The notes beneath the pieces are model-generated. The model ran no database searches. It was given only the letters and a program-made list of their open reading frames with translations, and had not been told where the DNA came from. Below, piece by piece: positions 39,374 to 64,000 of a stretch of 64,000 bases of DNA. The stretch is from assembly GCA_934130405.1 (NCBI GenBank), contig CAKOXX010000003.1:13643-77642 (forward strand), read 5' to 3'. The translations under genes were made by a program, and so were the position numbers. This stretch comes from an uncultured Bacilli bacterium. Its GTDB lineage: Bacteria; Bacillota_I; Bacilli_A; RF39; UBA660. How positions within the stretch are numbered: position 1 is the first letter of the stretch; every line of letters starts with the position of its first letter.

Positions 39374-41860
39374 CTATTTACCACAACATTGTTTATATTT
39401 TTTACCACTGCCACAAGGACAAGGATCATTACGACCTACTTTTGTACTCTTCTTAGGTTTCTTTACTGCATCTGATTTGTCATCATTAGTTTGAACACTT
39501 TTAGTGACAGGTTTACGTTCAATATTTTGTTGAATCTCGGCTTTTAATAAGAAAACACTAACATCATGATCAATCTTTTGTAACATTTGATCAAATAAAT
39601 CAAAACCTTCTGTACTATATGCTCTTAATGGATCTTCTTGACCATAACTACGTAAATAAATTCCTTCACGTAAATGACTCATTATGTTAATTTGTTCCAT
39701 CCAGTAATTATCAATAACTTGTAAAGATAGTGCTTTTTCAAATTCACTAGTAACTTCTACTGGAACATCACTAAGTTTTTCTTCATACTCAGATTTTGCT
39801 TTATTATATAGAAAATCAACTATTTCATCATCTATCATTGAATTAATTTCATCATCTTTAATATCATCTCTTAGAAGATTCTCATTAGCAAAAGAAACAA
39901 TTTCTTTCTTATCTTGTTCACTCATATCACCATCAACAGTATGAGACTTAACTAAATCAGTAACATAATTTCTCATACATTCAAGTACTTGTTCGTGAAC
40001 TGAATCACTATCTAGAATCTCATTTCTTCTACCATACATGATTTCACGTTGGGTATTCATTACGTCATCATATTGTAGCAATTGTTTTCTAGCATCAAAG
40101 TTATTTCCTTCAACTCTTTTTTGAGCAGTTGTAATGGCTTTTGAAAAATATTTATTTTGAATAGCTTGATCTCCGAAACCAAAACTAGTCATCATTTCTT
40201 TAATCTTTTCACTACCAAAACGAATCATTAAATCGTCTTCCATAGATACAAAGAATTGTGTAAATCCGGGATCACCTTGACGACCAGAACGTCCTCTTAA
40301 CTGATTATCAATACGACGTGATTCATGACGTTCAGTACCAATTACACAAAGTCCACCTAATTCTCTGATTTCATCTGATAACTTAATATCAGTACCACGA
40401 CCAGCCATATTAGTAGCGATAGTAACTGATTTATGTTGACCAATCTTAGAAATTATTTCTGCTTCTCTTGCATGATTCTTAGCATTTAATATTTCGTGAG
40501 GAATCTTTTCTTTCTTTAATAAAGTACTAATCAATTCACTAGTTTCAATAGCAATAGTACCAATTAAGACAGGTTGACCTTTGGCATATCTTTCTTTTAC
40601 TTCATTAATAATTGCTTTATATTTAGCATTTTTAGTAGCAAATACTAAGTCAGGAGCATCAATTCTAGCAACTGGTTTATTTGTAGGAATACAAATTACA
40701 TACATATTATAAATATCACGGAATTCTTCCTCTTCTGTTTTAGCAGTACCAGTCATACCTGATAATTTCTTATACATTCTAAATAAGTTCTGGAAAGTTA
40801 TAGTGGCTAAAGTCTTTGTCTCTTGATTAATACGAACTCCTTCTTTAGCTTCAATTGCTTGATGAAGTCCATCACTATAGGCACGACCTTTCATCAAACG
40901 TCCAGTAAATTGGTCTACTATAACAACTTCTCCATCTTGAACAACATAATCAACATCTAATTTCATTGAATAATTTGCTCTTAAAGCTTGATTAATATAA
41001 TGAACTAAAGTAGCATTTTCTACTTCATAAAGATTTTTAACTCTAAAGGCTTTTTCTGCTTTCTCACTACCTTCATCTGTTAATGTTACACTTTTAGTAG
41101 TTTCATCATATAAGTAATCAACATCATCCTTTAAACTCTTTACAAAGCTATCGGCATCTTGATAAAGGTTAGCACTAACTAACTGACCTCCAGAAATAAT
41201 TAAAGGAGTTCTTGCTTCATCGATTAAAACTGAATCTACTTCATCAACGATAGCAAAATTTAATGGTCTTTGAACTCTGTCTTCTTTTCTAATAACCATA
41301 TTATCTCTTAGGTAATCAAAACCGATTTCATTATTAGTAGAATATAAAATATCACAAGCATAAGCTTCCTGCTTTTCTTTTGGATTTAGTTCTCTTGTAT
41401 TAACTCCTACTGTTAAACCTAAAAATCTATGAATGCCACCCATCCATTCTGCATCACGAGTAGCTAAGTATTCATTAACAGTAATAATATGAACACCTTT
41501 TCCGTCTAAAGCATTTAAATAAGCTGGTAATACTGATGTTAAAGTTTTACCTTCACCAGTTTTCATTTCTGCTATATTACCATAGTGAATAGCTAAAGCA
41601 CCAACTATTTGAACATAGAAAGGTTTTTCTCCAATAACACGATAGGCGGCTTCTCTTGCTGTTGCAAAAGCTTCTACTAATATATCTTCTAATGTTTCAC
41701 CATTTGCTAAACGTTTCTTAAATTCTTCTGTTTTATTTTTTAACTCTTCATCTGATAATTTTTGGTATTCTTCATCAAGTGCAACTATTTTATCAGCTAA
41801 AGATTCAAATTTTTTTAATTCTTTATATTCATGATCAAACAATCTTGTAAATATTCCCAT
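39374..41860 (-). CDS. secA: preprotein translocase ATPase SecA
   Basis: Full-length SecA with MKTGEGKT Walker A, DEVDS, helicase motifs and a C-terminal SEC-C zinc motif CPCGSGKKYKQCCGK. The start is moved to MGIFTRLF (ATG 41860, GAGGAG SD). Confidence 0.97.
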   Translation of the reverse strand: MGIFTRLFDHEYKELKKFESLADKIVALDEEYQKLSDEELKNKTEEFKKRLANGETLEDILVEAFATAREAAYRVIGEKPFYVQIVGALAIHYGNIAEMKTGEGKTLTSVLPAYLNALDGKGVHIITVNEYLATRDAEWMGGIHRFLGLTVGVNTRELNPKEKQEAYACDILYSTNNEIGFDYLRDNMVIRKEDRVQRPLNFAIVDEVDSVLIDEARTPLIISGGQLVSANLYQDADSFVKSLKDDVDYLYDETTKSVTLTDEGSEKAEKAFRVKNLYEVENATLVHYINQALRANYSMKLDVDYVVQDGEVVIVDQFTGRLMKGRAYSDGLHQAIEAKEGVRINQETKTLATITFQNLFRMYKKLSGMTGTAKTEEEEFRDIYNMYVICIPTNKPVARIDAPDLVFATKNAKYKAIINEVKERYAKGQPVLIGTIAIETSELISTLLKKEKIPHEILNAKNHAREAEIISKIGQHKSVTIATNMAGRGTDIKLSDEIRELGGLCVIGTERHESRRIDNQLRGRSGRQGDPGFTQFFVSMEDDLMIRFGSEKIKEMMTSFGFGDQAIQNKYFSKAITTAQKRVEGNNFDARKQLLQYDDVMNTQREIMYGRRNEILDSDSVHEQVLECMRNYVTDLVKSHTVDGDMSEQDKKEIVSFANENLLRDDIKDDEINSMIDDEIVDFLYNKAKSEYEEKLSDVPVEVTSEFEKALSLQVIDNYWMEQINIMSHLREGIYLRSYGQEDPLRAYSTEGFDLFDQMLQKIDHDVSVFLLKAEIQQNIERKPVTKSVQTNDDKSDAVKKPKKSTKVGRNDPCPCGSGKKYKQCCGK

Positions 41861-41937
41861 TGTAAACATCTCCTCAAGGATTATTGTAACAAAAAAAGGA
41901 GACAATAGAAAGCATTTTCTCCCATTTTACACTATTT

Positions 41938-44232
41938 CTAAATGCTTACACAACTTTCTCCATGATACCAAGCATCTACTATAACTGGAGTCACAATATC
42001 ATCTATAACTTTTTCTATTTGTCTTGCTCCAAATTTTTCATAGTTCGTCTTTGAAATAATTTTTTCCACAATATCTGTGGATATTTCTACTTTTATATTT
42101 TTCTTTTGAAAAGCTTCTATCAATGTTACTAGTTTCATATTAACAATTTTTTCTATATCATTTTTTGTTAATTCTCTAAAATGATATTTTTTATCAATTC
42201 TGTTAACAAATTCTACTCCCAAAAATTCTTCAATATCTTTGTTACTTATTTCGTCAGTTGAAACAAATCCTATGTCTTTGTTAGCACCACCTAAATTAGT
42301 TGTCATAAAAAGAAAAATGTGGTCAAAAGACACTTTTCTGCCTTTAGCATCTTTCAAATATCCTTCATCCATTACTTGAAGAAATAATTTTAAGACTGAT
42401 GGTGAAGCTTTTTCTATTTCATCTAGGAGTATAACACAATGTGGATAAAGTCTTATCTGATCTAATACTGTCTGATGATTATCAAAACCAACATACCCTG
42501 GAGGAGCTCCTAAAATTTTACTAACTGAATGTTCTTCTTTATATTCACTCATATCAAGTCTTATAAAATGGTCTTTACCATATAAAAGCGAAGCATATTC
42601 TTTTACTAAGTAGGTTTTTCCTATTCCTGTCGCCCCAGATAAGAGAAAAGTATGTATCTTCGGAGTATCTTGGAAACCTAACTGTACTTTCTTAGTTAAA
42701 TTACATAAATCGTGAATAATTTCATCTTGCCCAACTATTTTAGCTAGTAATTCTTTTTCTATAGAAAACAATTTTGTTTTGTTTCCTTCTATTATTTCAT
42801 AAACAGGTATTTTTGTTTTTAAATAAATTACTTCTGCTATCATTTCTTTTGTTATTTTCTTGGGTTTCCTTTTACCAATTAGTGAAATCTCTAACTCATT
42901 CTTTTTAGTTATTAAGTTCTTTTCACTTTGTTTTAGTTTAGAAGCTTTTTTAAAATTTTGTTCTAACACAGCTTTTTTCTTTTCAGTTACTACCTTTTTT
43001 AATGAATCATTAAGTCTTTTTAACTCTTTATCTTTTTTATCCTCTACAAGACTTGCTCTTGAACAAACCTCATCTAGTATATCTATTGCTTTATCAGGTT
43101 GATAATAATCATAGATATATGTATTTGATAATTCAACTATCATATCAATCATTTCATCGGAAATAGAAACTGAGTGATATGCTTCATAAAGTGGTTTTAG
43201 TTTCTTTAAGATTTCTTTTGTTTTATCTTTATTTGGTTCTTCTACTAATATTATTTGAAATCTTCTATTTAAAGCTTTATCTTTTTCAATAAATTCTCGA
43301 TATTCTGCTACCGTAGTAGCACCAATTAAATGAATTTTTCCCCTTGCTAAAGCTGGTTTTAAGATATTTGATGCATCAATAGCTCCTTCTGCACCACCTG
43401 CTCCAACTAAAGTATGAATTTCATCTATAAATATTAGATATTCATCATGTTCTTCAATTTCTTTTAGTATTTTTCCTACTCTTTCTTCAAATTCTCCTCG
43501 ATATTTTGTACCTGCTACTAAGGAAGCCATTGATAATGAAAGAATCACTTTTCCCTTTAAAGAACGAGGTACATTATCGTTAACTATTTGTCTTGCTAAT
43601 TCTTCTACAATAGCAGTTTTTCCTACTCCTGCTTCACCTAATAATAAAGGATTATTTTTAGTTCTTCTGCAAAGAATTTCTATCATTCTTTTGATTTCAT
43701 CTTCTCTACCTATTACAGGATCTATTTCATTAGATACAATTCTTTTATTCAAATTGACAGAAAACTCTTCTATTAATAATTTTTTATGATTACTAACTTT
43801 TTTCTCACAAAATGAAGTAGAAAATTCTTGATATAAAGAATCTATATCTATATTCATTCCCATCAATAATCTTATAGCAATTCCTTCACCCTCTTCTAAA
43901 AGTGATAAAAATAATTCTGTTACTGATACTTCACTTTCTTTATTCTCTTTGCTATTAAGTATCGCTGTTTCTAAGACTCTTTTTAATAATGGTGTATATA
44001 AAAACCAATCATTAGTTGTTTTACCTATTCCTACTACTCTTATTAATTCGTCTTTAAATTTATCATAAGTTAGACCTAATTGTTTTAAATGACTAGTTAC
44101 TTTTAACTCTTTCATTGAGAGTATTGCTAAGAGTAAGTGTTCACTTCCAACATATGGATGCCGTAAAAGACGCATTTCTTTTCTAGCTAATACTAAAGCT
44201 TTCTGAGCATCTTCACTGAATTTCGAAAACAT
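41938..44232 (-). CDS. clpC: ATP-dependent Clp protease ATP-binding subunit ClpC
   Basis: Clp_N repeats, two AAA+ modules (GEAGVGKTA and SGATGIGKT), a UVR-like middle motif (VLEQNFKKASKLK) and an IGF ClpP-docking loop. Confidence 0.9.
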   Translation of the reverse strand: MFSKFSEDAQKALVLARKEMRLLRHPYVGSEHLLLAILSMKELKVTSHLKQLGLTYDKFKDELIRVVGIGKTTNDWFLYTPLLKRVLETAILNSKENKESEVSVTELFLSLLEEGEGIAIRLLMGMNIDIDSLYQEFSTSFCEKKVSNHKKLLIEEFSVNLNKRIVSNEIDPVIGREDEIKRMIEILCRRTKNNPLLLGEAGVGKTAIVEELARQIVNDNVPRSLKGKVILSLSMASLVAGTKYRGEFEERVGKILKEIEEHDEYLIFIDEIHTLVGAGGAEGAIDASNILKPALARGKIHLIGATTVAEYREFIEKDKALNRRFQIILVEEPNKDKTKEILKKLKPLYEAYHSVSISDEMIDMIVELSNTYIYDYYQPDKAIDILDEVCSRASLVEDKKDKELKRLNDSLKKVVTEKKKAVLEQNFKKASKLKQSEKNLITKKNELEISLIGKRKPKKITKEMIAEVIYLKTKIPVYEIIEGNKTKLFSIEKELLAKIVGQDEIIHDLCNLTKKVQLGFQDTPKIHTFLLSGATGIGKTYLVKEYASLLYGKDHFIRLDMSEYKEEHSVSKILGAPPGYVGFDNHQTVLDQIRLYPHCVILLDEIEKASPSVLKLFLQVMDEGYLKDAKGRKVSFDHIFLFMTTNLGGANKDIGFVSTDEISNKDIEEFLGVEFVNRIDKKYHFRELTKNDIEKIVNMKLVTLIEAFQKKNIKVEISTDIVEKIISKTNYEKFGARQIEKVIDDIVTPVIVDAWYHGESCVSI

Positions 44233-44311: not shown

Positions 44312-44337
44312 AAAAAAAATTAGTCCAAGACTAATTT
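44312..44337 (-). terminator. rho-independent terminator after the orphan paralog
   Basis: AAATTAGTC-CAA-GACTAATTT hairpin overlapping the stop, followed by a T-run on the minus strand. Confidence 0.6.
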
Positions 44338-44888
44338 AATTGTTCTACTGCTGATATTCTAACTTTTCCATAATATGATTTTCCGATAGCATCATTTTCT
44401 GCTGTTAAGTTTAGCCAAGTACGTAATTCAAAATTCTGTGTAGTATTTCCTGCTATTGAATATGAACCAAGTTTATTACTACTACTTGCTAAACTTCCAC
44501 TTGCCACTGACGTTCCATCTTTCTTTAAATCATAAGATAAATAACTATACGTTACTAAGGAACAACCATTGCAAGATGTTGTATCATCATCTAAGTAAAC
44601 ATCATAATTAATTGTTCTTGTTCCTGTATTTTTTAGTGAAAAGTTATATGGGGTAGATGCTAAACCGTCGCTATCTTCTTGAGGAATAGCATTTGTTACA
44701 CTAATAGTAGATGTTCCTTCTACATAATTTAATTGTAAATCTTTTGCTACTAGTGTGACATTTTGTGTTCCGTTTAACGTCATTTTTGAAAGTGCAAAAC
44801 TAATACCTGCTATTAAAAAAATCAATATAAATAAGCCAACAATTAATAGTATGTTTTTACTATTATCAACTTTTATACTATCTTTCAT
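44331..44888 (-). CDS. membrane-anchored/secreted beta-rich protein, paralog of the sipW-locus family
   Basis: N-terminal hydrophobic segment, then ISVTNAIPQEDSDG...YNFSLKNTGTRTINYDVYL...FELRTWLNL...YYGKVRISAVE. These blocks are the same as in 61163-61678, 62534-63166 and 63261-63863. Confidence 0.6.
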   Translation of the reverse strand: MKDSIKVDNSKNILLIVGLFILIFLIAGISFALSKMTLNGTQNVTLVAKDLQLNYVEGTSTISVTNAIPQEDSDGLASTPYNFSLKNTGTRTINYDVYLDDDTTSCNGCSLVTYSYLSYDLKKDGTSVASGSLASSSNKLGSYSIAGNTTQNFELRTWLNLTAENDAIGKSYYGKVRISAVEQLN

Positions 44889-58344: not shown

Positions 58345-59120
58345 CTTGGATACCCCACATACATAGTACCGTTAGTGATAATTCCACCCATACCAGCACT
58401 TCCATAATGAGTTTTATCTATAAGTGGTATCAAATCAATGGCTTTATTTACAGGAGAAAGAGCTACACAAGAAGCCACTATTGCCGGATCTAAGGCATGA
58501 ATATTTATTCTTTTAGGACTTGAGGCAAAGTTACTTCCTGCCTTTATTAATTCCTCATAGTTTGATTGACAAGCTCCTGCAATTATTATCAATTTATCTT
58601 GATTTTTTTCATACATTCTCGCTTTTTTTATAGCATTAACAAAGTTTTCTGAGTTTTGATAATTTTCTATTTTACTTTTATCTTTGGCATGTTTTTTTAA
58701 GAAATCATGTCCTGTTATTACTACTATATCTGGTTTATATTTTTCTAATGTGTCTGTTATGACATCTTCTATTTCACTTTCTTTAACCTTTATACCATAA
58801 GCTTCTAAATGCATATCTTTATAAAAGTTGATACATCTATCTAAATAAAATTTATCAGAATCAAATTGAACTATTTTACCAGGTAAATAGAAATATTCGT
58901 TTCTATCTAGTGAGATTAAACTTTCTACCTTTTCAATATCTACTCTATCTGTTTCTTTTTTAACTGAAACTTTAGTTAAATCAGTTAACTCACTATCTGC
59001 ATAAAGCCTAACATCTACACCTCTTAGATAAGCTATATCATCTTCTATATCGATTATTTGAAAGACTAAGTCATTATTATAAGATTGCCTAGTTACATAG
59101 TCACCTAACTTAAAATTCAT
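58341..59120 (-). CDS. yabG: sporulation-specific peptidase YabG (U57)
   Basis: FKLGDYVTRQSYNNDLVF.I N-terminus, VVITGHD, GACQS and the GGIITNGT..VGYPR end are typical of YabG. Confidence 0.88.
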   Translation of the reverse strand: MNFKLGDYVTRQSYNNDLVFQIIDIEDDIAYLRGVDVRLYADSELTDLTKVSVKKETDRVDIEKVESLISLDRNEYFYLPGKIVQFDSDKFYLDRCINFYKDMHLEAYGIKVKESEIEDVITDTLEKYKPDIVVITGHDFLKKHAKDKSKIENYQNSENFVNAIKKARMYEKNQDKLIIIAGACQSNYEELIKAGSNFASSPKRINIHALDPAIVASCVALSPVNKAIDLIPLIDKTHYGSAGMGGIITNGTMYVGYPR

Positions 59121-59158
59121 CTAATCACCCAGTAAAGTTTATGCAAGAATAGTTTAAA

Positions 59159-59953
59159 TTATTTATAAAGTTTATTTGCTATATCAACAAATATTTTATA
59201 ATCTAACTGTTCTGCTCTTACACTTAAATCTAGATTATACTTTTCTAAAACTTCACTAACTAATTTTAAATCGTATTTTTTTAAGTTATTTCTTAGTGTT
59301 TTTCTTTTAAATTGAAAGCTATCATGAACTATTTGTTGAAAAAATTCTTCACTCATTAATTTTTCTTTCGTTTCCTTTGGTTTAAATGATACTACTACGC
59401 TATCCACATTTGGTTTGGGAATAAATTCTTCTCTACTTACTAAAAATTCTTTTTTTGTATCAAAGTAATATCTTAATAAAACAGTTAATGCACCATATTC
59501 TTTCTTTCCTGGTGTAGAAGTAAATCTTTCTCCTACCTCTTTTTGTACCATCATCACAATTTTGCTAAAATAAAGACCAGAATTTATTAGTTTAAAAAGT
59601 ATTGGTGTAGTTATATAATAAGGAACATTACTTACAAAATATAAATTTTTATATTGATAATTGGCTAAGTCTTCTTTAATATCTTGTTGCAAAAAGTCTC
59701 CAAAATAGATAGAGATATTATCTGCTCCTCCTAAGTTCCTTATTAATATGTCTTCTAGAGTTTTATCTATTTCGTAACATAATACTTCGCCTTTATCTTT
59801 TAGATATTTAGTTAAGGCTCCTGCTCCTGGTCCTACTTCAATTATCAAAGATTCATCTTTAATATCTGCTGCCTCTACAATTTTTGCTAATACTTTTTCA
59901 TTTTTTAAAAAGTTTTGACCAAATTTTTTCTTAAATTGAAATTTTTCATTCAT
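59159..59953 (-). CDS. rsmA: 16S rRNA (adenine1518/1519-N6)-dimethyltransferase RsmA/KsgA
   Basis: KKKFGQNFL start, SAM motif EVGPGAGALT, and NVPYYITTPI. Confidence 0.95.
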   Translation of the reverse strand: MNEKFQFKKKFGQNFLKNEKVLAKIVEAADIKDESLIIEVGPGAGALTKYLKDKGEVLCYEIDKTLEDILIRNLGGADNISIYFGDFLQQDIKEDLANYQYKNLYFVSNVPYYITTPILFKLINSGLYFSKIVMMVQKEVGERFTSTPGKKEYGALTVLLRYYFDTKKEFLVSREEFIPKPNVDSVVVSFKPKETKEKLMSEEFFQQIVHDSFQFKRKTLRNNLKKYDLKLVSEVLEKYNLDLSVRAEQLDYKIFVDIANKLYK

Positions 59954-60037
59954 ATTAAAACCTCTTTCTCAATGTTGTTATTATATCATAGATATTTTGT
60001 TAAATTTTATAACTTTAACGTATAAAAAAAGAAAAGT

Positions 60038-60472
60038 TTATTTTTTCAACTCTTCCTTAGCTGGTTTAATCATAAATAATATATTAGAAACTGATAAACC
60101 ATATAGCATTATTTTCATATAAGATATAAATGTATTGAAATAGTTAAAATCAATTCCATAACCATATTTTTCATTAAGTACCATATTTTTATCAGCGAAT
60201 GCTCTATAGCCTACTACTATTATTGTAGTAAAAATTATACATGCTGTTAAATTATAAAATATGTTATTATTAACTCCTTTTTGTTTAAATACAAGGTTAA
60301 TTATGAATAATAAGAAGATAATTAAGAATGGAATAAATTCTGGCAGTAATGTTGCAAAGCTTTTTTCTAGTCTAACATTCATTCTTACCATTATAAATAA
60401 GGTAATTGCAAATGCACCTAATAGTAAAATATATTTCAATACCGCAAATATAATATTTAATATTTTCTTCAT
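60038..60472 (-). CDS. hypothetical 4-TM membrane protein, last gene of the sipW operon
   Basis: 144-aa hydrophobic ORF starting 1 nt after the stop of the upstream gene. No family recognised. Confidence 0.5.
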   Translation of the reverse strand: MKKILNIIFAVLKYILLLGAFAITLFIMVRMNVRLEKSFATLLPEFIPFLIIFLLFIINLVFKQKGVNNNIFYNLTACIIFTTIIVVGYRAFADKNMVLNEKYGYGIDFNYFNTFISYMKIMLYGLSVSNILFMIKPAKEELKK

Positions 60473-60473
60473 A

Positions 60474-61163
60474 TTAACCTCCTATTACTTCGTTATGATA
60501 CCAATCTGAAAGCTCTACTAAAAGGTCTAACGTATTTTGATAATTTGTATTAATCGAATTATAACTATCTTTAGCTAAGAAGAAAATACTTGATCTACTT
60601 ATATCATTTGTAAAATAATAATTATCGGCATTTTCTAAACTTGAAGTAATATAACCATTACTTGATAATTGTTCATTAATAGTTGTTTTGATAAATGGTC
60701 TTATATTTTTTAAGCTTTCAATATTAAAACTATTATCTTCATCAATAAAGGTATTTAATTGCATTACAACACAGTCATTTAAAATATTATTTTGATAAAA
60801 TTTTCCTAGTTTATAAACATCTCTTAATTCTACAGTTTGTTTGCTAGCTAATTCTTTATACTCATCACTTTCAAACACTTTAACACAATTATTTAATTTT
60901 ATTTGAATACTATTCATATCATATATATTATTTCTTCCTTGATATGAATTTTGTTGATATGAATTTATATTAGTTTTTATTTTTTCTAGTTTTTCTTTTG
61001 TTTTTTGATCATTAGCAACTACTTCACTGCTAACATCAATTTTTGTACTCAATTCTTTGTAATGATAGAAATTTAAAAATAATAGAAAGAAAGAAAAACC
61101 AAAAACTAAACCAGTTAGTGCGTAAGCAAATATATTTATATATTCCAATAACATTTTTTTCAT
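60474..61163 (-). CDS. hypothetical single-pass membrane protein with an extracytoplasmic domain (sipW operon)
   Basis: 229 aa with an N-terminal TM (FAYALTGLVFGFSFFLLFL). The start overlaps the upstream stop (TAATG). Confidence 0.5.
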   Translation of the reverse strand: MKKMLLEYINIFAYALTGLVFGFSFFLLFLNFYHYKELSTKIDVSSEVVANDQKTKEKLEKIKTNINSYQQNSYQGRNNIYDMNSIQIKLNNCVKVFESDEYKELASKQTVELRDVYKLGKFYQNNILNDCVVMQLNTFIDEDNSFNIESLKNIRPFIKTTINEQLSSNGYITSSLENADNYYFTNDISRSSIFFLAKDSYNSINTNYQNTLDLLVELSDWYHNEVIGG

Positions 61164-61678
61164 TAATTATTCTCCTTTACTATTATATTAACTTTATAGG
61201 CATAACTTTTATTTTCCCAAGTACCTTTTTCAACTGAATCTGGTATATATACTTTAAGTTCATAATTATTAGTCTTACCAGCTATAACATATCTTTCATC
61301 TAAGATATTGTTTTTTACTTTTGCTAAGTTTCCTTTTTTTATAATTTTGCCATTAAGTAATAATTCATAATTTAACTGACTTTTAGAAAGTTTTGCTTCC
61401 GTAATGTTTACTTCTTCAAAAACAACTTTATAAGAACTTTTAAAATCATTTACATTTTTTATACTAAATTTATAATTTGGAACAGATTGTGCTTCGCTTT
61501 CAGTCATTGGTACCAAGTTTTCATTTAATGCTACTTCGTCACTTTCTTTTTGAACCTGCAAAGTATTTATTTTTCCAATATCACCGTAGTAAAAAACCTT
61601 ATACCAAAGAAATGATGTACAAATTACAAAAGCAAAAAGAAGAATTCCTCCCAAAGCAAGAAATATTTTCTTTGTCAT
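61163..61678 (-). CDS. membrane-anchored beta-rich protein, divergent paralog of the secreted family (sipW operon)
   Basis: 171 aa with an N-terminal TM, then LVPMTESEA..VPNYKFSIKNVNDFKSSYKVVF...NYELKVYIPD...KSYAYKVNIIVKE. The block order matches the paralogs upstream of sipW. The start overlaps the sipW stop (TAATG). Confidence 0.6.
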   Translation of the reverse strand: MTKKIFLALGGILLFAFVICTSFLWYKVFYYGDIGKINTLQVQKESDEVALNENLVPMTESEAQSVPNYKFSIKNVNDFKSSYKVVFEEVNITEAKLSKSQLNYELLLNGKIIKKGNLAKVKNNILDERYVIAGKTNNYELKVYIPDSVEKGTWENKSYAYKVNIIVKENN

Positions 61679-62487
61679 TATCTATATCTTCTCCTTTCTG
61701 TTTTTGTATTACTATCTACCTTTTTTGACTTTTCTTTTGATTTTTTTTGCGTTGATATTTCTTTATCTTTATTTTTTTCTTTTAATTGTTCTTTCTTTTC
61801 TTTTAGTTCTTCTTTATTTTTGCTTTCTTTTTGATTATTAGGATCATTTTTAATTGTCTTAATTATTTTAATTATGTCTGCTCCAATAATTCCTACTGTA
61901 GGAACAATAATTAACAAGACCCATCCTACTACACTACTTAATATGTATTGTATATACCCAAGTTTTGGTAAACGTATAAGAACTTTTCCATAAATAGTGT
62001 CAAAGGTTTGTCGTGAGGCATCTTCTGTGTTATTAGCATCTCCCTTTGTTGTAAATAGATACTTACCATCATCTGTCTTTTCTATTTTTCTTACTCTGTG
62101 TGTAACCGTTACTCCAGAACTACGATAATCTGTTGAGTTAAAGGTTATTACGTCTCCGACTTTTATATTTGATGGATCCTTTACTCTCATTGTTACAATT
62201 ACATCCAATACATTTATATTTGGCACCATACTTGGGCTTACTATTGTATAGGCCGATACCAATGGCGGTTTGGTTACACCTTTTTTTAAATTATTTCGTT
62301 GGTCTAAAAAGTTTACAATTATTAGCAAAAAAACTAAAATCATTATTAATAAAACTGAATACATAATAACTGTAAATATATAGTGTACTATTCTTTTCAA
62401 TTTCTCAAAAAAAGAAAGATTAGAAAATGGTACTGTAATAGCTATTTCATTATCTTTCAAATTTATCACCCGCTTATCATTCTCCAC
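61678..62487 (-). CDS. sipW: signal peptidase I, SipW (archaeal/ER S26B) type, with a long charged C-terminal tail
   Basis: VSPSMVPNI (catalytic Ser), VTHRV (His) and TKGDANNTED motifs between two TM segments. A ~70-aa Lys/Glu-rich tail follows TM2. Confidence 0.85.
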   Translation of the reverse strand: MENDKRVINLKDNEIAITVPFSNLSFFEKLKRIVHYIFTVIMYSVLLIMILVFLLIIVNFLDQRNNLKKGVTKPPLVSAYTIVSPSMVPNINVLDVIVTMRVKDPSNIKVGDVITFNSTDYRSSGVTVTHRVRKIEKTDDGKYLFTTKGDANNTEDASRQTFDTIYGKVLIRLPKLGYIQYILSSVVGWVLLIIVPTVGIIGADIIKIIKTIKNDPNNQKESKNKEELKEKKEQLKEKNKDKEISTQKKSKEKSKKVDSNTKTERRRYR

Positions 62488-62533
62488 TATTATAAGTGTA
62501 TCACATCTTTATTTTTTTTAAAATAGAAGTTTA

Positions 62534-63166
62534 TTATTTAGATTTGGCTTTAGCATTAGCATGAAGTGATACTTGAACTGTAAATGTTTTTTGAGTTGCA
62601 TCAACTTTAGTATTTTCATCTACCCACATTCTAAAGCGATAGTTATCAGTTTTACTTGTATCAACTGTATTTTTATATAACAACATTGTTCCTTTTTCAC
62701 TTCCAATAGTTGTTGTTGAAGTTAACGGAACAAAATGTTGAGGTTTCATTACTTCTTCATATTCTCCACCAATTTTCTTTTCTAAATATAGTTTTACTTC
62801 ATTATTTTTTAATGTTGATGTGTCTTGCTTTTGTCCAGAGATTTCATATGTGATAGCTGCATTTCCTTGAATAGTTGATGTTACACTAAAATCAAAATAT
62901 TGATTAGTTCCAGACATTGCTTTACCACTTTCGTCTGTCATCGGCATTGCATTAGTAATCGTTATTCCGTTAGTATCTTCTGTATAGTCTAGTGATATTC
63001 TTCCAGTCGTAATAGAGTTGGTTTTGTCTCCTTTTTTTGTCACTGTTACTGATATGGCAGATATTCCTATTACTAGTAAAATTAAGAGTAATAAAATAAT
63101 AAGTACAAAATATAATTTTTCTCTTTTTTCCTCTTTTAGTTCTTCTTTATTTTCTTCTTTTTTCAT
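62534..63166 (-). CDS. secreted beta-rich protein, family paralog (proximal to sipW)
   Basis: Start moved to MKKEENK (ATG 63166, AGGAGTG SD). Charged N-terminus plus a hydrophobic segment, then ITTGRISLDYTEDTNGITITNAMPMTDESGK...QYFDFSVTSTIQGNAAITYEI...YRFRMWVDE...FTVQVSLHANAKA. Confidence 0.7.
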   Translation of the reverse strand: MKKEENKEELKEEKREKLYFVLIILLLLILLVIGISAISVTVTKKGDKTNSITTGRISLDYTEDTNGITITNAMPMTDESGKAMSGTNQYFDFSVTSTIQGNAAITYEISGQKQDTSTLKNNEVKLYLEKKIGGEYEEVMKPQHFVPLTSTTTIGSEKGTMLLYKNTVDTSKTDNYRFRMWVDENTKVDATQKTFTVQVSLHANAKAKSK

Positions 63167-63220
63167 AAACCAAGACACTCCTATTCTGTTTAAATTGTAG
63201 CATACTTTCATTTTATGGTA

Positions 63221-63249
63221 AAGAAAAAAGTGTCAGAGATTAGACACTT
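63221..63249 (-). terminator. rho-independent terminator after paralog 63261-63863
   Basis: AAGTGTC-N8-GACACTT hairpin followed by TTTTTTCTT on the minus strand. Almost identical to the hairpin at 63938-63959. Confidence 0.7.
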
Positions 63250-63260
63250 AACTATATTTA

Positions 63261-63863
63261 TTATTGAGCATTTGCTTTTCCGTATACATTTACTCTTAGC
63301 TTATATGATTGCTTAGTACTTGTATTAGTATATGTATCAGCAACCCACATTCTTAAACGATAACTAGTTGTTGTTGATGTTTTTGTACTTCCTGATACCA
63401 ATACAAATTGACCAGTTGGAGCTCCACTGGCTTCATTGGAAGCTGTTGGAGTTAGGTTTGATACTAATGTTGGAGCTAACACTACTTTGCTATCATCTCC
63501 ACTAGTTAGGTATACTTTGATTCCAGAATTTAAAGACGAACTTGCAGAATCAATTGAAGCTGTTATAGCATAATTAATTGTTGCAGTACCTTGAACAGTT
63601 GATGTCACTGTAAAGTCAAAAGTATTATTAGTACCAGTCAATTTTTTTCCAGAATCATCAGTCATTGGTAAAGCATCAGTTAGAGCTATACCATTTGTTG
63701 GTTCACTATAACTCATTGTAATAGTACCTGTTGTAACTGTATTTACTTTTGTACCTGTCTTTGAATAAGTGAATGCTGCAAATGATACACCAACTAAAGC
63801 AACCACTAAAATTGCAACTCCTAAGATGGAAACTAGAATCTGTTTTGAATTATTTTCGCTCAT
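63261..63863 (-). CDS. secreted beta-rich protein with a SipW-type (TasA-like) signal peptide
   Basis: Start moved to MSENNSKQ (ATG 63863, AAGGAGG SD). The signal region ILVSILGVAILVVALVGVSFAAFTYSK resembles the ALVGGGT.A.F.D region of TasA/CalY signals. It is followed by TVTTGTITMSYSEPTNGIALTDALPMTDDSGK...FDFTVTSTVQGTATINYAI...YRLRMWVAD...YKLRVNVYGKA. Confidence 0.75.
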   Translation of the reverse strand: MSENNSKQILVSILGVAILVVALVGVSFAAFTYSKTGTKVNTVTTGTITMSYSEPTNGIALTDALPMTDDSGKKLTGTNNTFDFTVTSTVQGTATINYAITASIDSASSSLNSGIKVYLTSGDDSKVVLAPTLVSNLTPTASNEASGAPTGQFVLVSGSTKTSTTTSYRLRMWVADTYTNTSTKQSYKLRVNVYGKANAQ

Positions 63864-63930
63864 TTGTCTAACCTCCTTACAATATAAAGATATCACAAAT
63901 ATTAGGAAATTAACAAGTAAATTTTTCACA

Positions 63931-63960
63931 AAAGAAAAAGTGTCAGTAATTAGACACTTT
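63931..63960 (-). terminator. rho-independent terminator after the partial paralog at the right edge
   Basis: AAGTGTC-N8-GACACTT hairpin plus a T-run on the minus strand. Confidence 0.7.
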
Positions 63961-63969
63961 TATAGGTTA

Positions 63970-64000
63970 TTATTTAGCAGGTGCTTGTCCATAAACATTG
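63970..64000 (-). CDS. C-terminal end of a further family paralog (gene starts beyond the right edge)
   Basis: The minus strand reads ...AAT GTT TAT GGA CAA GCA CCT GCT AAA TAA (NVYGQAPAK-stop). This parallels the ...RVNVYGKANAQ-stop end of the neighbouring paralog. Confidence 0.5.
   Translation of the reverse strand, partial: NVYGQAPAK

Follow-up and report, generated by a model that had tools for sequence, protein, structure and literature searches.

We describe here a gene locus of an uncultured Bacilli bacterium, located near the right-hand end (60038-64000) of a 64,000-nucleotide (nt) stretch of contig CAKOXX010000003.1, hereafter called the window. In this locus a tandem array of paralogous subunit genes is followed by a signal peptidase gene and three genes for membrane proteins, and the whole gene set is tightly conserved. 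On balance we think it somewhat probable that it encodes a SipW-dependent, TasA-superfamily-like fibre or surface-display system with a membrane-anchored base paralog. The evidence for this proposal includes a dedicated peptidase, a subunit cleavage site laid out like that of TasA, and a divergent family member in which this site is lost. In what follows A1 to A4 designate the tandem subunit paralogs, S the signal peptidase, D the divergent paralog anchored by a transmembrane (TM) segment, and E and F two membrane proteins; the arrow in a motif marks the known or predicted cleavage point. The features are the following.

63970..64000, minus strand: 3' end of A2, an A-type subunit gene cut by the window edge; translation ending ...NVYGQAPAK and stop
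63936..63961, minus strand: hairpin terminator after A2, AAGTGTC-TAATTACT-GACACTT followed by a T-run (terminator scan)
63261..63863, minus strand: A3, A-type subunit of 200 amino acids (aa), with a signal peptide carrying S-F-A↓A-F, a conserved N-terminal strand region and a predicted beta-sandwich
63228..63249, minus strand: hairpin terminator after A3, whose loop TAATCTCT is the commonest form (terminator scan)
63194..63222, minus strand: sigma-A-type promoter with extended -10, TTTACC-17-TGCTACAAT, heading the A4-peptidase-D-E-F operon
62534..63166, minus strand: A4, a-type subunit, 210 aa, with a long Lys/Glu-rich N-region
61678..62487, minus strand: S, archaeal/ER-type signal peptidase I (SipW-like), with two TM segments, Ser/His motifs and a Lys-rich C-terminal tail
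61163..61678, minus strand: D, divergent family member, 171 aa, with an N-terminal TM anchor predicted to be uncleavable; overlaps the peptidase gene
60474..61163, minus strand: E, single-pass membrane protein, 229 aa, with a predicted extracytoplasmic helical bundle and two invariant Cys
60038..60472, minus strand: F, small membrane protein, 144 aa, three to four TM segments, conserved with the locus
44331..44888, minus strand: fifth, full-length member of the family, standing alone, 185 aa, ...GISFA↓LSK..., with two Cys, matched by the family hidden Markov model (HMM) with E=3.6e-31

The open reading frames (ORFs), their coordinates, the peptidase motifs and the gene junctions reported in a first-pass annotation of this DNA were all found as described, with TAATG stop/start overlaps at 61678 and 61163 and a 1-nt gap at 60473; an alternative GTG start of the peptidase gene lies at 62469. 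That annotation counted at least three tandem genes of one family in the truncated array. On a near-identical contig of 154 kb (L001), which reaches beyond the window edge, the array consists of four members (A1, 211 aa; A2, 200; A3, 200; A4, 210), the complete A2 gene of 200 aa lying at L001:9292-9894, and the gene order reads tatD, A1-A4, peptidase, D, E, F, rsmA-yabG-veg-spoVG-yabP-divIC-tilS-ftsH. The common descent of the tandem genes is well founded, A3 and A4 sharing 38% identity (E=2e-42) and the paralogs of the array 38-64%. A4 is of a second type, designated a-type, which is invariably the last subunit gene ahead of the peptidase.

The peptidase exceeds the cut-off of TIGR02228, the model of archaeal/ER-type signal peptidase I (S26B), by a wide score (91.6 bits against 51.85), as the S26B assignment had announced. 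Its motifs SPSMVP, VTHRV and KGDANNTED align to SEC11A, and among proteins of known structure it comes closest to human SEC11A/C, the catalytic subunits (E=1e-5). The Ser/His/Asp catalytic blocks and the two TM segments are conserved among 64 homologs, and the catalytic type is Ser-His rather than Ser-Lys, with a conserved GDxN..D block. Because it scores 76.7 bits against the Bacillus SipW equivalog NF046067, below the cut-off of 190, the enzyme is SipW-like and not a SipW ortholog. Judged by these motifs and profiles, it is a dedicated SipW/Sec11-type enzyme.

The subunits carry a corresponding cleavage site. In the A-type proteins (n=167) the end of the hydrophobic segment reads G(91%)-V-S(95%)-F/Y(99%)-A(99%)↓A(94%)-F(81%)-x-Y/F(99%) and continues as G(99%)-x3-N(99%)-T-I-T-T(98%)-G(98%)-T-I-x-M-x-Y(99%), while the a-type genes encode S(98%)-x-A(80%)-T/A-F, then N(100%)...T-G(100%). 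The pattern persists across 150 representatives at no more than 50% identity (A29, 95%; F31, 89%). Mature TasA in PDB 8AUR begins with AFNDIK, which places its cut at ...T-W-A↓A-F, and the subunit site S-(F/Y)-A↓A-F is laid out in the same way from P3 to P2'. The features cognate to SipW are thus present, namely small residues at P3 and P1, an aromatic residue at P2 and Ala-Phe at P1'-P2', with a conservation of 81-99%, and the resemblance to SipW-dependent TasA signals recognised at first reading holds. In D, the equivalent region is T-S-x-L-W(97%)-Y-x-F-F(100%)-Y, which offers no small P1 and has Leu/Trp at P1/P1'. Since the small P3 and P1 residues are strictly conserved in the subunits and specifically lost in D, real cleavage is argued for.

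Profile comparison leads to the same region. When 94 diverse family members were aligned by HHalign to 57 PF12389 proteins, the full-length comparison with the TasA family covered 61 columns (P=1e-3, probability 22%), and the aligned part ran from the signal peptide across the cleavage site to the first strand (ISfAAF...NtItTGtItM against GTWAAF...nsfAAGTLDL). The controls that also bear TM segments scored much worse (D, 0.12; E, 0.10; F, 0.27), so that this likeness to TasA is specific.

An alternative reading of the same hydrophobic segment is that of a type IV pilin, in which it would be kept as the core helix of a filament after removal of a short leader. It finds an echo in weak profile matches to the archaeal type IV pilins 6nav (E=0.12) and 8tib (E=0.6) and in sub-threshold hits of Pfam Pilin_N in 7 of the 94 members, but none of these matches is significant, and it is the hydrophobic segment itself that produces them. 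Furthermore, the K/R-G/A class III motif is absent, the N-region reading ...S-K-Q-hydrophobic; no prepilin peptidase, assembly ATPase or platform gene occurs in about 60 loci; and every locus has a type I peptidase, whose cognate site is conserved where the hydrophobic segment ends on its C-terminal side. We rejected this barely tenable possibility for reasons of motif and gene content.

The proposal of a divergent, TM-anchored member of the family also stands. Pairwise BLAST of D gave marginal similarity, but HHalign of D against the A and a classes, performed without the N-termini, reached a probability of 96.5% (E=1e-9, 128-142 columns). Because this profile-profile match excludes the N-terminal regions, D is a true, divergent family member. 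From its altered cleavage region D probably stays membrane-anchored, which makes it a candidate for the membrane base of the fibre.

As for the subunit itself, the AlphaFold2 model of A3, built on a 73-sequence alignment, is a nine-strand all-beta sandwich with a predicted local distance difference test (pLDDT) score of 80-94 at residues 80-200, whereas residues 1-45 fall below 50. The monomers of BsaA and AbpA have likewise been reported with a poorly ordered N-terminal segment. The Foldseek matches of this model in the PDB are weak and combine generic jelly-rolls and carbohydrate-binding modules (CBMs) with donor-strand subunits, namely AbpA, the Saci_0406 thread, FimG and CS20. AbpA (7ueg) stands at rank 2 (probability 0.77, E=4e-3, TM 0.28) and the Saci_0406 thread (7pnb) has E=8e-3, the TM-scores of these two matches being 0.23-0.28. 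Members of the TasA superfamily are often related only at such a weak structural level.

The model we propose assembles these elements as follows. After export of the subunits by Sec, the dedicated peptidase would cut them and free an N-terminal segment (AF.YSK.G...N-T-I-T-T-G-T-I.M.Y) that the monomer model leaves disordered. This segment would act as a donor strand and enter the beta-sandwich of a neighbour, and successive strand insertions would build a heteropolymeric fibre. D, retained by its uncleaved TM helix, would accept a strand and donate none, and would thereby serve as a cell-proximal anchor in the manner of TafF. Long paralogs, which combine the same N-terminal module with Big_2/Flg_new repeats, would be incorporated as adhesive subunits, and E and F would assist the peptidase or an assembly step at the membrane. 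Polymerisation is inferred here.

Some members might in addition be locked covalently through Asn and Lys. The precedent is the 'exchange and lock' mechanism of BsaA from C. perfringens, in which strand exchange builds the polymer and an isopeptide bond, catalysed by E56, then joins N35 of the donor strand to K74 (PMC7395162, PMC11580942). In the present family few residues are as well conserved over the 150 divergent representatives as N41 (97%) and E54 (93%); K73, placed 19 residues past E54, is conserved at 75%, and K116 at 63%, with Arg in 29%. All of A1-A4 carry N41, E54 and K73, and D has lost N41 and E54. By this analogy a covalent lock is possible for the majority of members and would not be a family rule.

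Several observations weigh against our model. No lysine is invariant in the family, so that the isopeptide lock cannot be general. The folded domain gives no significant link to TasA: Foldseek of the A3 model against the PDB returned no match at E<=1e-3, with TM-scores of at most 0.36, and TasA was not within the top 50; the window proteins and 73 close members had no match above threshold to Pfam PF12389 (Peptidase_M73), which was touched below threshold by 3 of the 94 diverse members (best E=0.005); and sequence and profile searches of the PDB with the A family yielded nothing significant. When the HHalign comparison was restricted to the mature proteins it fell to P=0.24, which implies that the detectable likeness to TasA resides in the SipW-cognate signal and cleavage region and not in the folded domain. 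Direct homology of the mature domain to TasA was rejected on this result, and the TasA-like jelly-roll expected at the outset is not demonstrated. At the cleavage site of A4 of the window (residues 36-40; G-I-S-A-I-S-V), Ile replaces the customary Ala of P1 and Val the customary Phe of P2', and this variant with Ile at P1 is found in 4 of 64 a-type genes (6%); to judge from these residues, its cleavage may be shifted by one residue (I-S-A↓I) or lost. The hydrophobic region of about 19-20 residues could suit a stable TM anchor. Finally, E and F offer no clue to their function.

The size and composition of the family bring in the main rival to this model. At a threshold of E<=1e-3 an exhaustive profile search recovered 5,089 clusters (50% identity), of which 2,392 reached E<=1e-10. 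Dozens of the 150 listed representatives are proteins of 300-1,743 aa that carry the domain as a module at their extreme N-terminus and, in their C-terminal parts, Flg_new (up to 193 bits), Big_2 (four copies, up to 158 bits), Big-like domains and DUF6273. One may accordingly picture a surface-display or stalk module that does not polymerise: a membrane-proximal beta-sandwich, tethered by an uncleaved N-terminal helix, would carry cargo (Big_2, Flg_new, CBM-like) or form a surface coat, the peptidase would shed or mature the proteins, and D would be the permanently tethered variant. The N-terminal position of the domain in these adhesin-repeat proteins, the length of the hydrophobic region and a core devoid of significant similarity to filament proteins all speak for such a module. 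We nevertheless consider it unlikely, because the strict conservation of small P3/P1 residues, lost specifically in D, argues for real cleavage, because a stalk does not explain a 97%-conserved Asn and a conserved amphipathic strand in a segment that is disordered in the model, and because several short paralogs without cargo, equipped with strong promoters and terminators of their own, resemble structural subunits. All six signature features (P3, P2, P1, P2', N41, E54) are kept in 53 of 58 long representatives.

Long members with C-terminal extensions of up to about 1,500 aa include L045:2133-5495, L069:67-1545, L053:7977-8975, P0195 and P0214, among others; some extensions contain Big_2, Flg_new or DUF6273 and some are Cys-rich. 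The first of these, a protein of 1,120 aa, is encoded within the subunit array of its locus.

The two membrane proteins E and F, announced as novel, have indeed no known relative in profile searches. A single TM segment was found in E, in agreement with its description as a single-pass protein; for F, said to have four TM segments, three to four were found. E has 58 homologs of 228-235 aa, restricted to the clade and none with a Pfam domain, whose alignment displays two invariant Cys and a TM segment that hardly varies and precedes N-F-Y-H. Its AlphaFold2 model (pLDDT 81.6) is all-alpha, a TM helix and a helical bundle, and had no Foldseek neighbour at E<=1e-3, the best matches being designed bundles at E=0.08. 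F, which like E occurs in this clade alone, has no relative in Pfam, NCBIfam or the PDB, and Pfam scans of all E and F members gave noise only. In Pfam and NCBIfam searches with the six locus proteins, the peptidase alone was matched. In a few distant loci (L064:2905-3729; L067:10520-11278) F has a long, highly charged low-complexity C-terminal extension and reaches 252-274 aa against about 145.

These proteins could also be understood as accessories of the enzyme. D, E and F would then be the counterparts of SPCS1-3 in the Sec11 signal peptidase complex (SPC), and the locus would be a processing machine for substrates dispersed in the genome. The Sec11-like character of the peptidase and the translational coupling of S-D-E-F throughout the clade are in keeping with this idea, as is TafG, proposed as a helper of the Tafi peptidase. 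Family members do occur outside the locus: the fifth one in the window, 16 kb away, sits between clpC (41938-44232) and a gene for a DcuC-type transporter, with secA (39374-41905) near, and scores equally on the A-type and D-type profiles. As an account of the whole locus we find it quite improbable, since D is a paralog of the substrates, the profiles of D, E and F match no SPC subunit or other PDB chain, and the E model lacks a structural neighbour; for E and F taken separately, it is compatible with the fibre model.

The conservation of the locus was followed by a scan of species-representative genomes, which yielded 77 loci for ORF and HMM analysis. All come from uncultured gut metagenome-assembled genomes (MAGs) labelled Bacilli, Tenericutes or Firmicutes; the hosts include Ca. 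Onthousia spp., Clostridium sp. CAG:451 and one closed chromosome of 1.52 Mb. The order [A-type x0-5][a-type x1-3]-S-D-E-F on a single strand is kept in about 60 of the 77, the deviating loci being contig ends or solo paralogs, and the co-occurrence of E and F with a sipW-type gene, proposed earlier as a check, holds in these loci. Upstream of S there are one to seven subunit genes (mode 4), the minimal loci having one a-type gene and S-D-E-F. None of the 64 loci whose sequence is complete at the position of the peptidase gene lacks it; co-location with a dedicated signal peptidase I is frequent, though not universal, in the TasA superfamily (TasA, AbpA, AbpX, CanA, threads, Tafi). The S/D and D/E overlaps are of 4 nt or 1 nt in most loci, and E and F are spaced by 1-3 nt. 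In 57 of 59 loci the next gene after F is rsmA, and in 48 of 51 tatD is found upstream of the array; these conserved flanks mean that the locus is ancestral and vertically inherited, and not a mobile island. Ca. Onthousia is Bacilli incertae sedis in the NCBI taxonomy; its MAGs and those of CAG:451 presumably belong to the GTDB order RFN20. This order is reported to be devoid of srtA/B sortases, and for that reason little display of surface proteins had been expected of it (PMC10868615). For two of its families a cell wall and spore formation are predicted, in agreement with the sporulation genes beside the locus.

The transcriptional signals define the units of the locus. A terminator scan found three terminator-like sites against 0.9 +/- 0.9 in shuffles, and the two near-identical hairpins AAGTGTC-N8-GACACTT noticed earlier are present, each with a T-run behind it, at 63961-63936 and 63249-63228. 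This 22-nt element, AAGTGTCTAATCTCTGACACTT, occurs in 71 copies in 40 of 78 loci (L001-L070) for a chance expectation of 0.0075, and 55 of these copies have the loop TAATCTCT. Every copy is located 10-24 nt past the stop of a non-last A-type gene (60 of 168 such genes), and none comes after the last a-type gene, S, D, E or F. Rfam gave no match in 59000-64000, and the hairpin is not a known RNA family. The resemblance of the two copies had been taken as a sign of recent tandem duplication. This explanation fails, given the identity of 38-64% between the paralogs and the recurrence of the element, loop included, across species in which the flanking proteins are only about 60% identical. Conservation as strict as this is not usual among intrinsic terminators and suggests that a protein or an RNase recognises the element, or that it sets read-through.

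On the promoter side, an extended -10 box TGnTAYART occurs at constant spacing ahead of 53 of 62 a-type genes, of which 51 also have a -35 matching at least 4 of 6 positions, and ahead of 49 of 162 A-type genes. Before S, D, E and F there is practically none, and the background is 0.077 per 190 nt. A1-A3, proteins of about 20 kDa, each have their own sigma-A-type promoter and the conserved terminator. From the placement of hairpins and promoters, each A gene is a separate unit and a-S-D-E-F form one operon.

These promoters bear on the suggestion, made with the first description of the locus, that it could specify a spore appendage. A spore-associated structure (coat, appendage or extrasporal matrix) expressed during sporulation would accord with a location among yabG, veg, spoVG, yabP, yabQ and spoVT, and TasA was first described as spore-associated, PDB 5OF1 still naming it 'Spore coat-associated protein N'. 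This linkage says little, however, because the neighbourhood is a conserved origin-proximal housekeeping region, and the conserved extended -10 promoters ahead of the subunit genes look sigma-A-type, which argues against sporulation-specific expression. Ena-type appendage subunits have an Ena/DUF3992 domain, no signal peptide, a Cys-containing N-terminal connector and Cys cross-links. A1-A4, in contrast, have signal peptides and no Cys, the locus proteins have no Ena match in Pfam or Foldseek, and the F-ENA paper contains nothing matching the family. A role in the spore is therefore disfavoured, and we hold it to be very improbable.

A few sequences remain to be mentioned beside the main subject. 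A 29-nt direct repeat of 90% identity (61792-61820 and 63125-63153) encodes NKEELKE both times, in the cytoplasmic C-tail of the peptidase and the cytoplasmic N-tail of A4; in such low-complexity Lys/Glu codons it may be a chance match. Outside the window, L001:4293-4925 is an unannotated Lys-rich gene of 210 aa between mfd and spoVT, and L001:7463-7648 is a 61-aa ORF with two TM segments between metS and tatD; neither has a Pfam match on record.

The fibre model can be extended, tentatively and with more doubt than belief, to the family as a whole. It would then represent, in these gut Bacilli of reduced genome, a general sortase-independent pilus and adhesin route. Thousands of surface proteins with a common N-terminal module (a SipW-type signal, a donor strand and a beta-sandwich) would, once cleaved by the dedicated peptidase, co-polymerise by strand exchange onto D; E and F would form a new kind of membrane assembly or peptidase-accessory complex, and the exactly conserved hairpin would set the subunit stoichiometry. 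If our interpretation is correct, uncultured gut Bacilli with small genomes possess a pilus and adhesin-display route that bears on gut colonisation and host interaction, and SipW-dependent TasA-type fibre biology extends past the biofilms of Bacillus and Clostridium. The three unannotated families (A-domain, E and F) merit curated models.

How does this locus compare with the systems already described? The features of sortase pili are missing: there is no LPXTG motif, the C-termini being ...NVYGKANAQ, ...HANAKAKSK and ...IIVKENN, and no sortase gene in the locus. With tapA-sipW-tasA of B. subtilis (PF12389; 8AUR) it shares a dedicated SipW-type peptidase, a near-identical cleavage layout (T-W-A↓A-F against S-F-A↓A-F) followed by a G-T-hydrophobic strand motif, and a beta-rich mature protein, the N-terminal segment being the donor strand in TasA. 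It differs by mature domains without detectable homology and without a PF12389 match above threshold, by a shorter domain (about 170 aa against about 234 aa for TasA), and by the absence of a TapA-like gene and the presence of a TM-anchored paralog, of E and F and of one to seven subunit genes.

The sipW-bsaA-bsaB-bsaC operon of C. perfringens likewise combines a SipW-type peptidase with several TasA-like paralogs, and BsaA oligomers are membrane-anchored, a further likeness (PMC7395162, PMC11580942). Multi-paralog operons are known in the BsaA/TasA family. After the Asn of the N-terminal strand, Glu and a Lys 18-19 residues further on are found in both (BsaA N35/E56/K74; here N41/E54/K73), although K73 is only 75% conserved here and BsaA was compared by its published residues. 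The present locus lacks a VWA protein (BsaC), a two-component system and an adjacent sortase, and its peptidase gene is downstream of the subunits.

The archaeal bundling pili ABP (AbpA/AbpB; 7UEG) and the Saci_0406 threads (7PNB) are among the best, weak, structural neighbours of the A3 model, and the ABP operon also includes three 4-TM proteins and one single-TM protein of unknown role. ABP has no dedicated peptidase, whereas the present locus has no TapA/AbpB-like protein; AbpX for its part has a dedicated TIGR02228 peptidase.

The closest architectural match, by analogy of gene content, is the haloarchaeal Tafi pilus. Tafi loci comprise the pilins TafA/E, the tip TafC, the anchor TafF, which is made of one TM helix and a jelly-roll-like domain, the signal peptidase TafD and the helper TafG, proposed to assist this peptidase (PMC12337348, PMC11821415). 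Both loci contain several pilin-like paralogs and a dedicated signal peptidase, additional membrane helpers, and larger members that could be a tip or adhesin. The present system is bacterial with Sec-type signals, whereas Tafi uses Tat signals; no sequence relationship was detected between them, E and F being unrelated to TafG/DUF5305 in Pfam scans; and our locus has no regulator gene. The novelty claimed at first for the architecture thus holds for E and F, which have no known relatives, while the overall plan has precedents in the Tafi loci and the ABP operons; if true, our reading makes this locus a bacterial counterpart of the archaeal Tafi architecture. What is new here is an unannotated and very large subunit family without detectable core homology to TasA, together with the accessory proteins E and F, a bacterial TM-anchored paralog, an adhesin-type modular use of the domain and a conserved terminator element.

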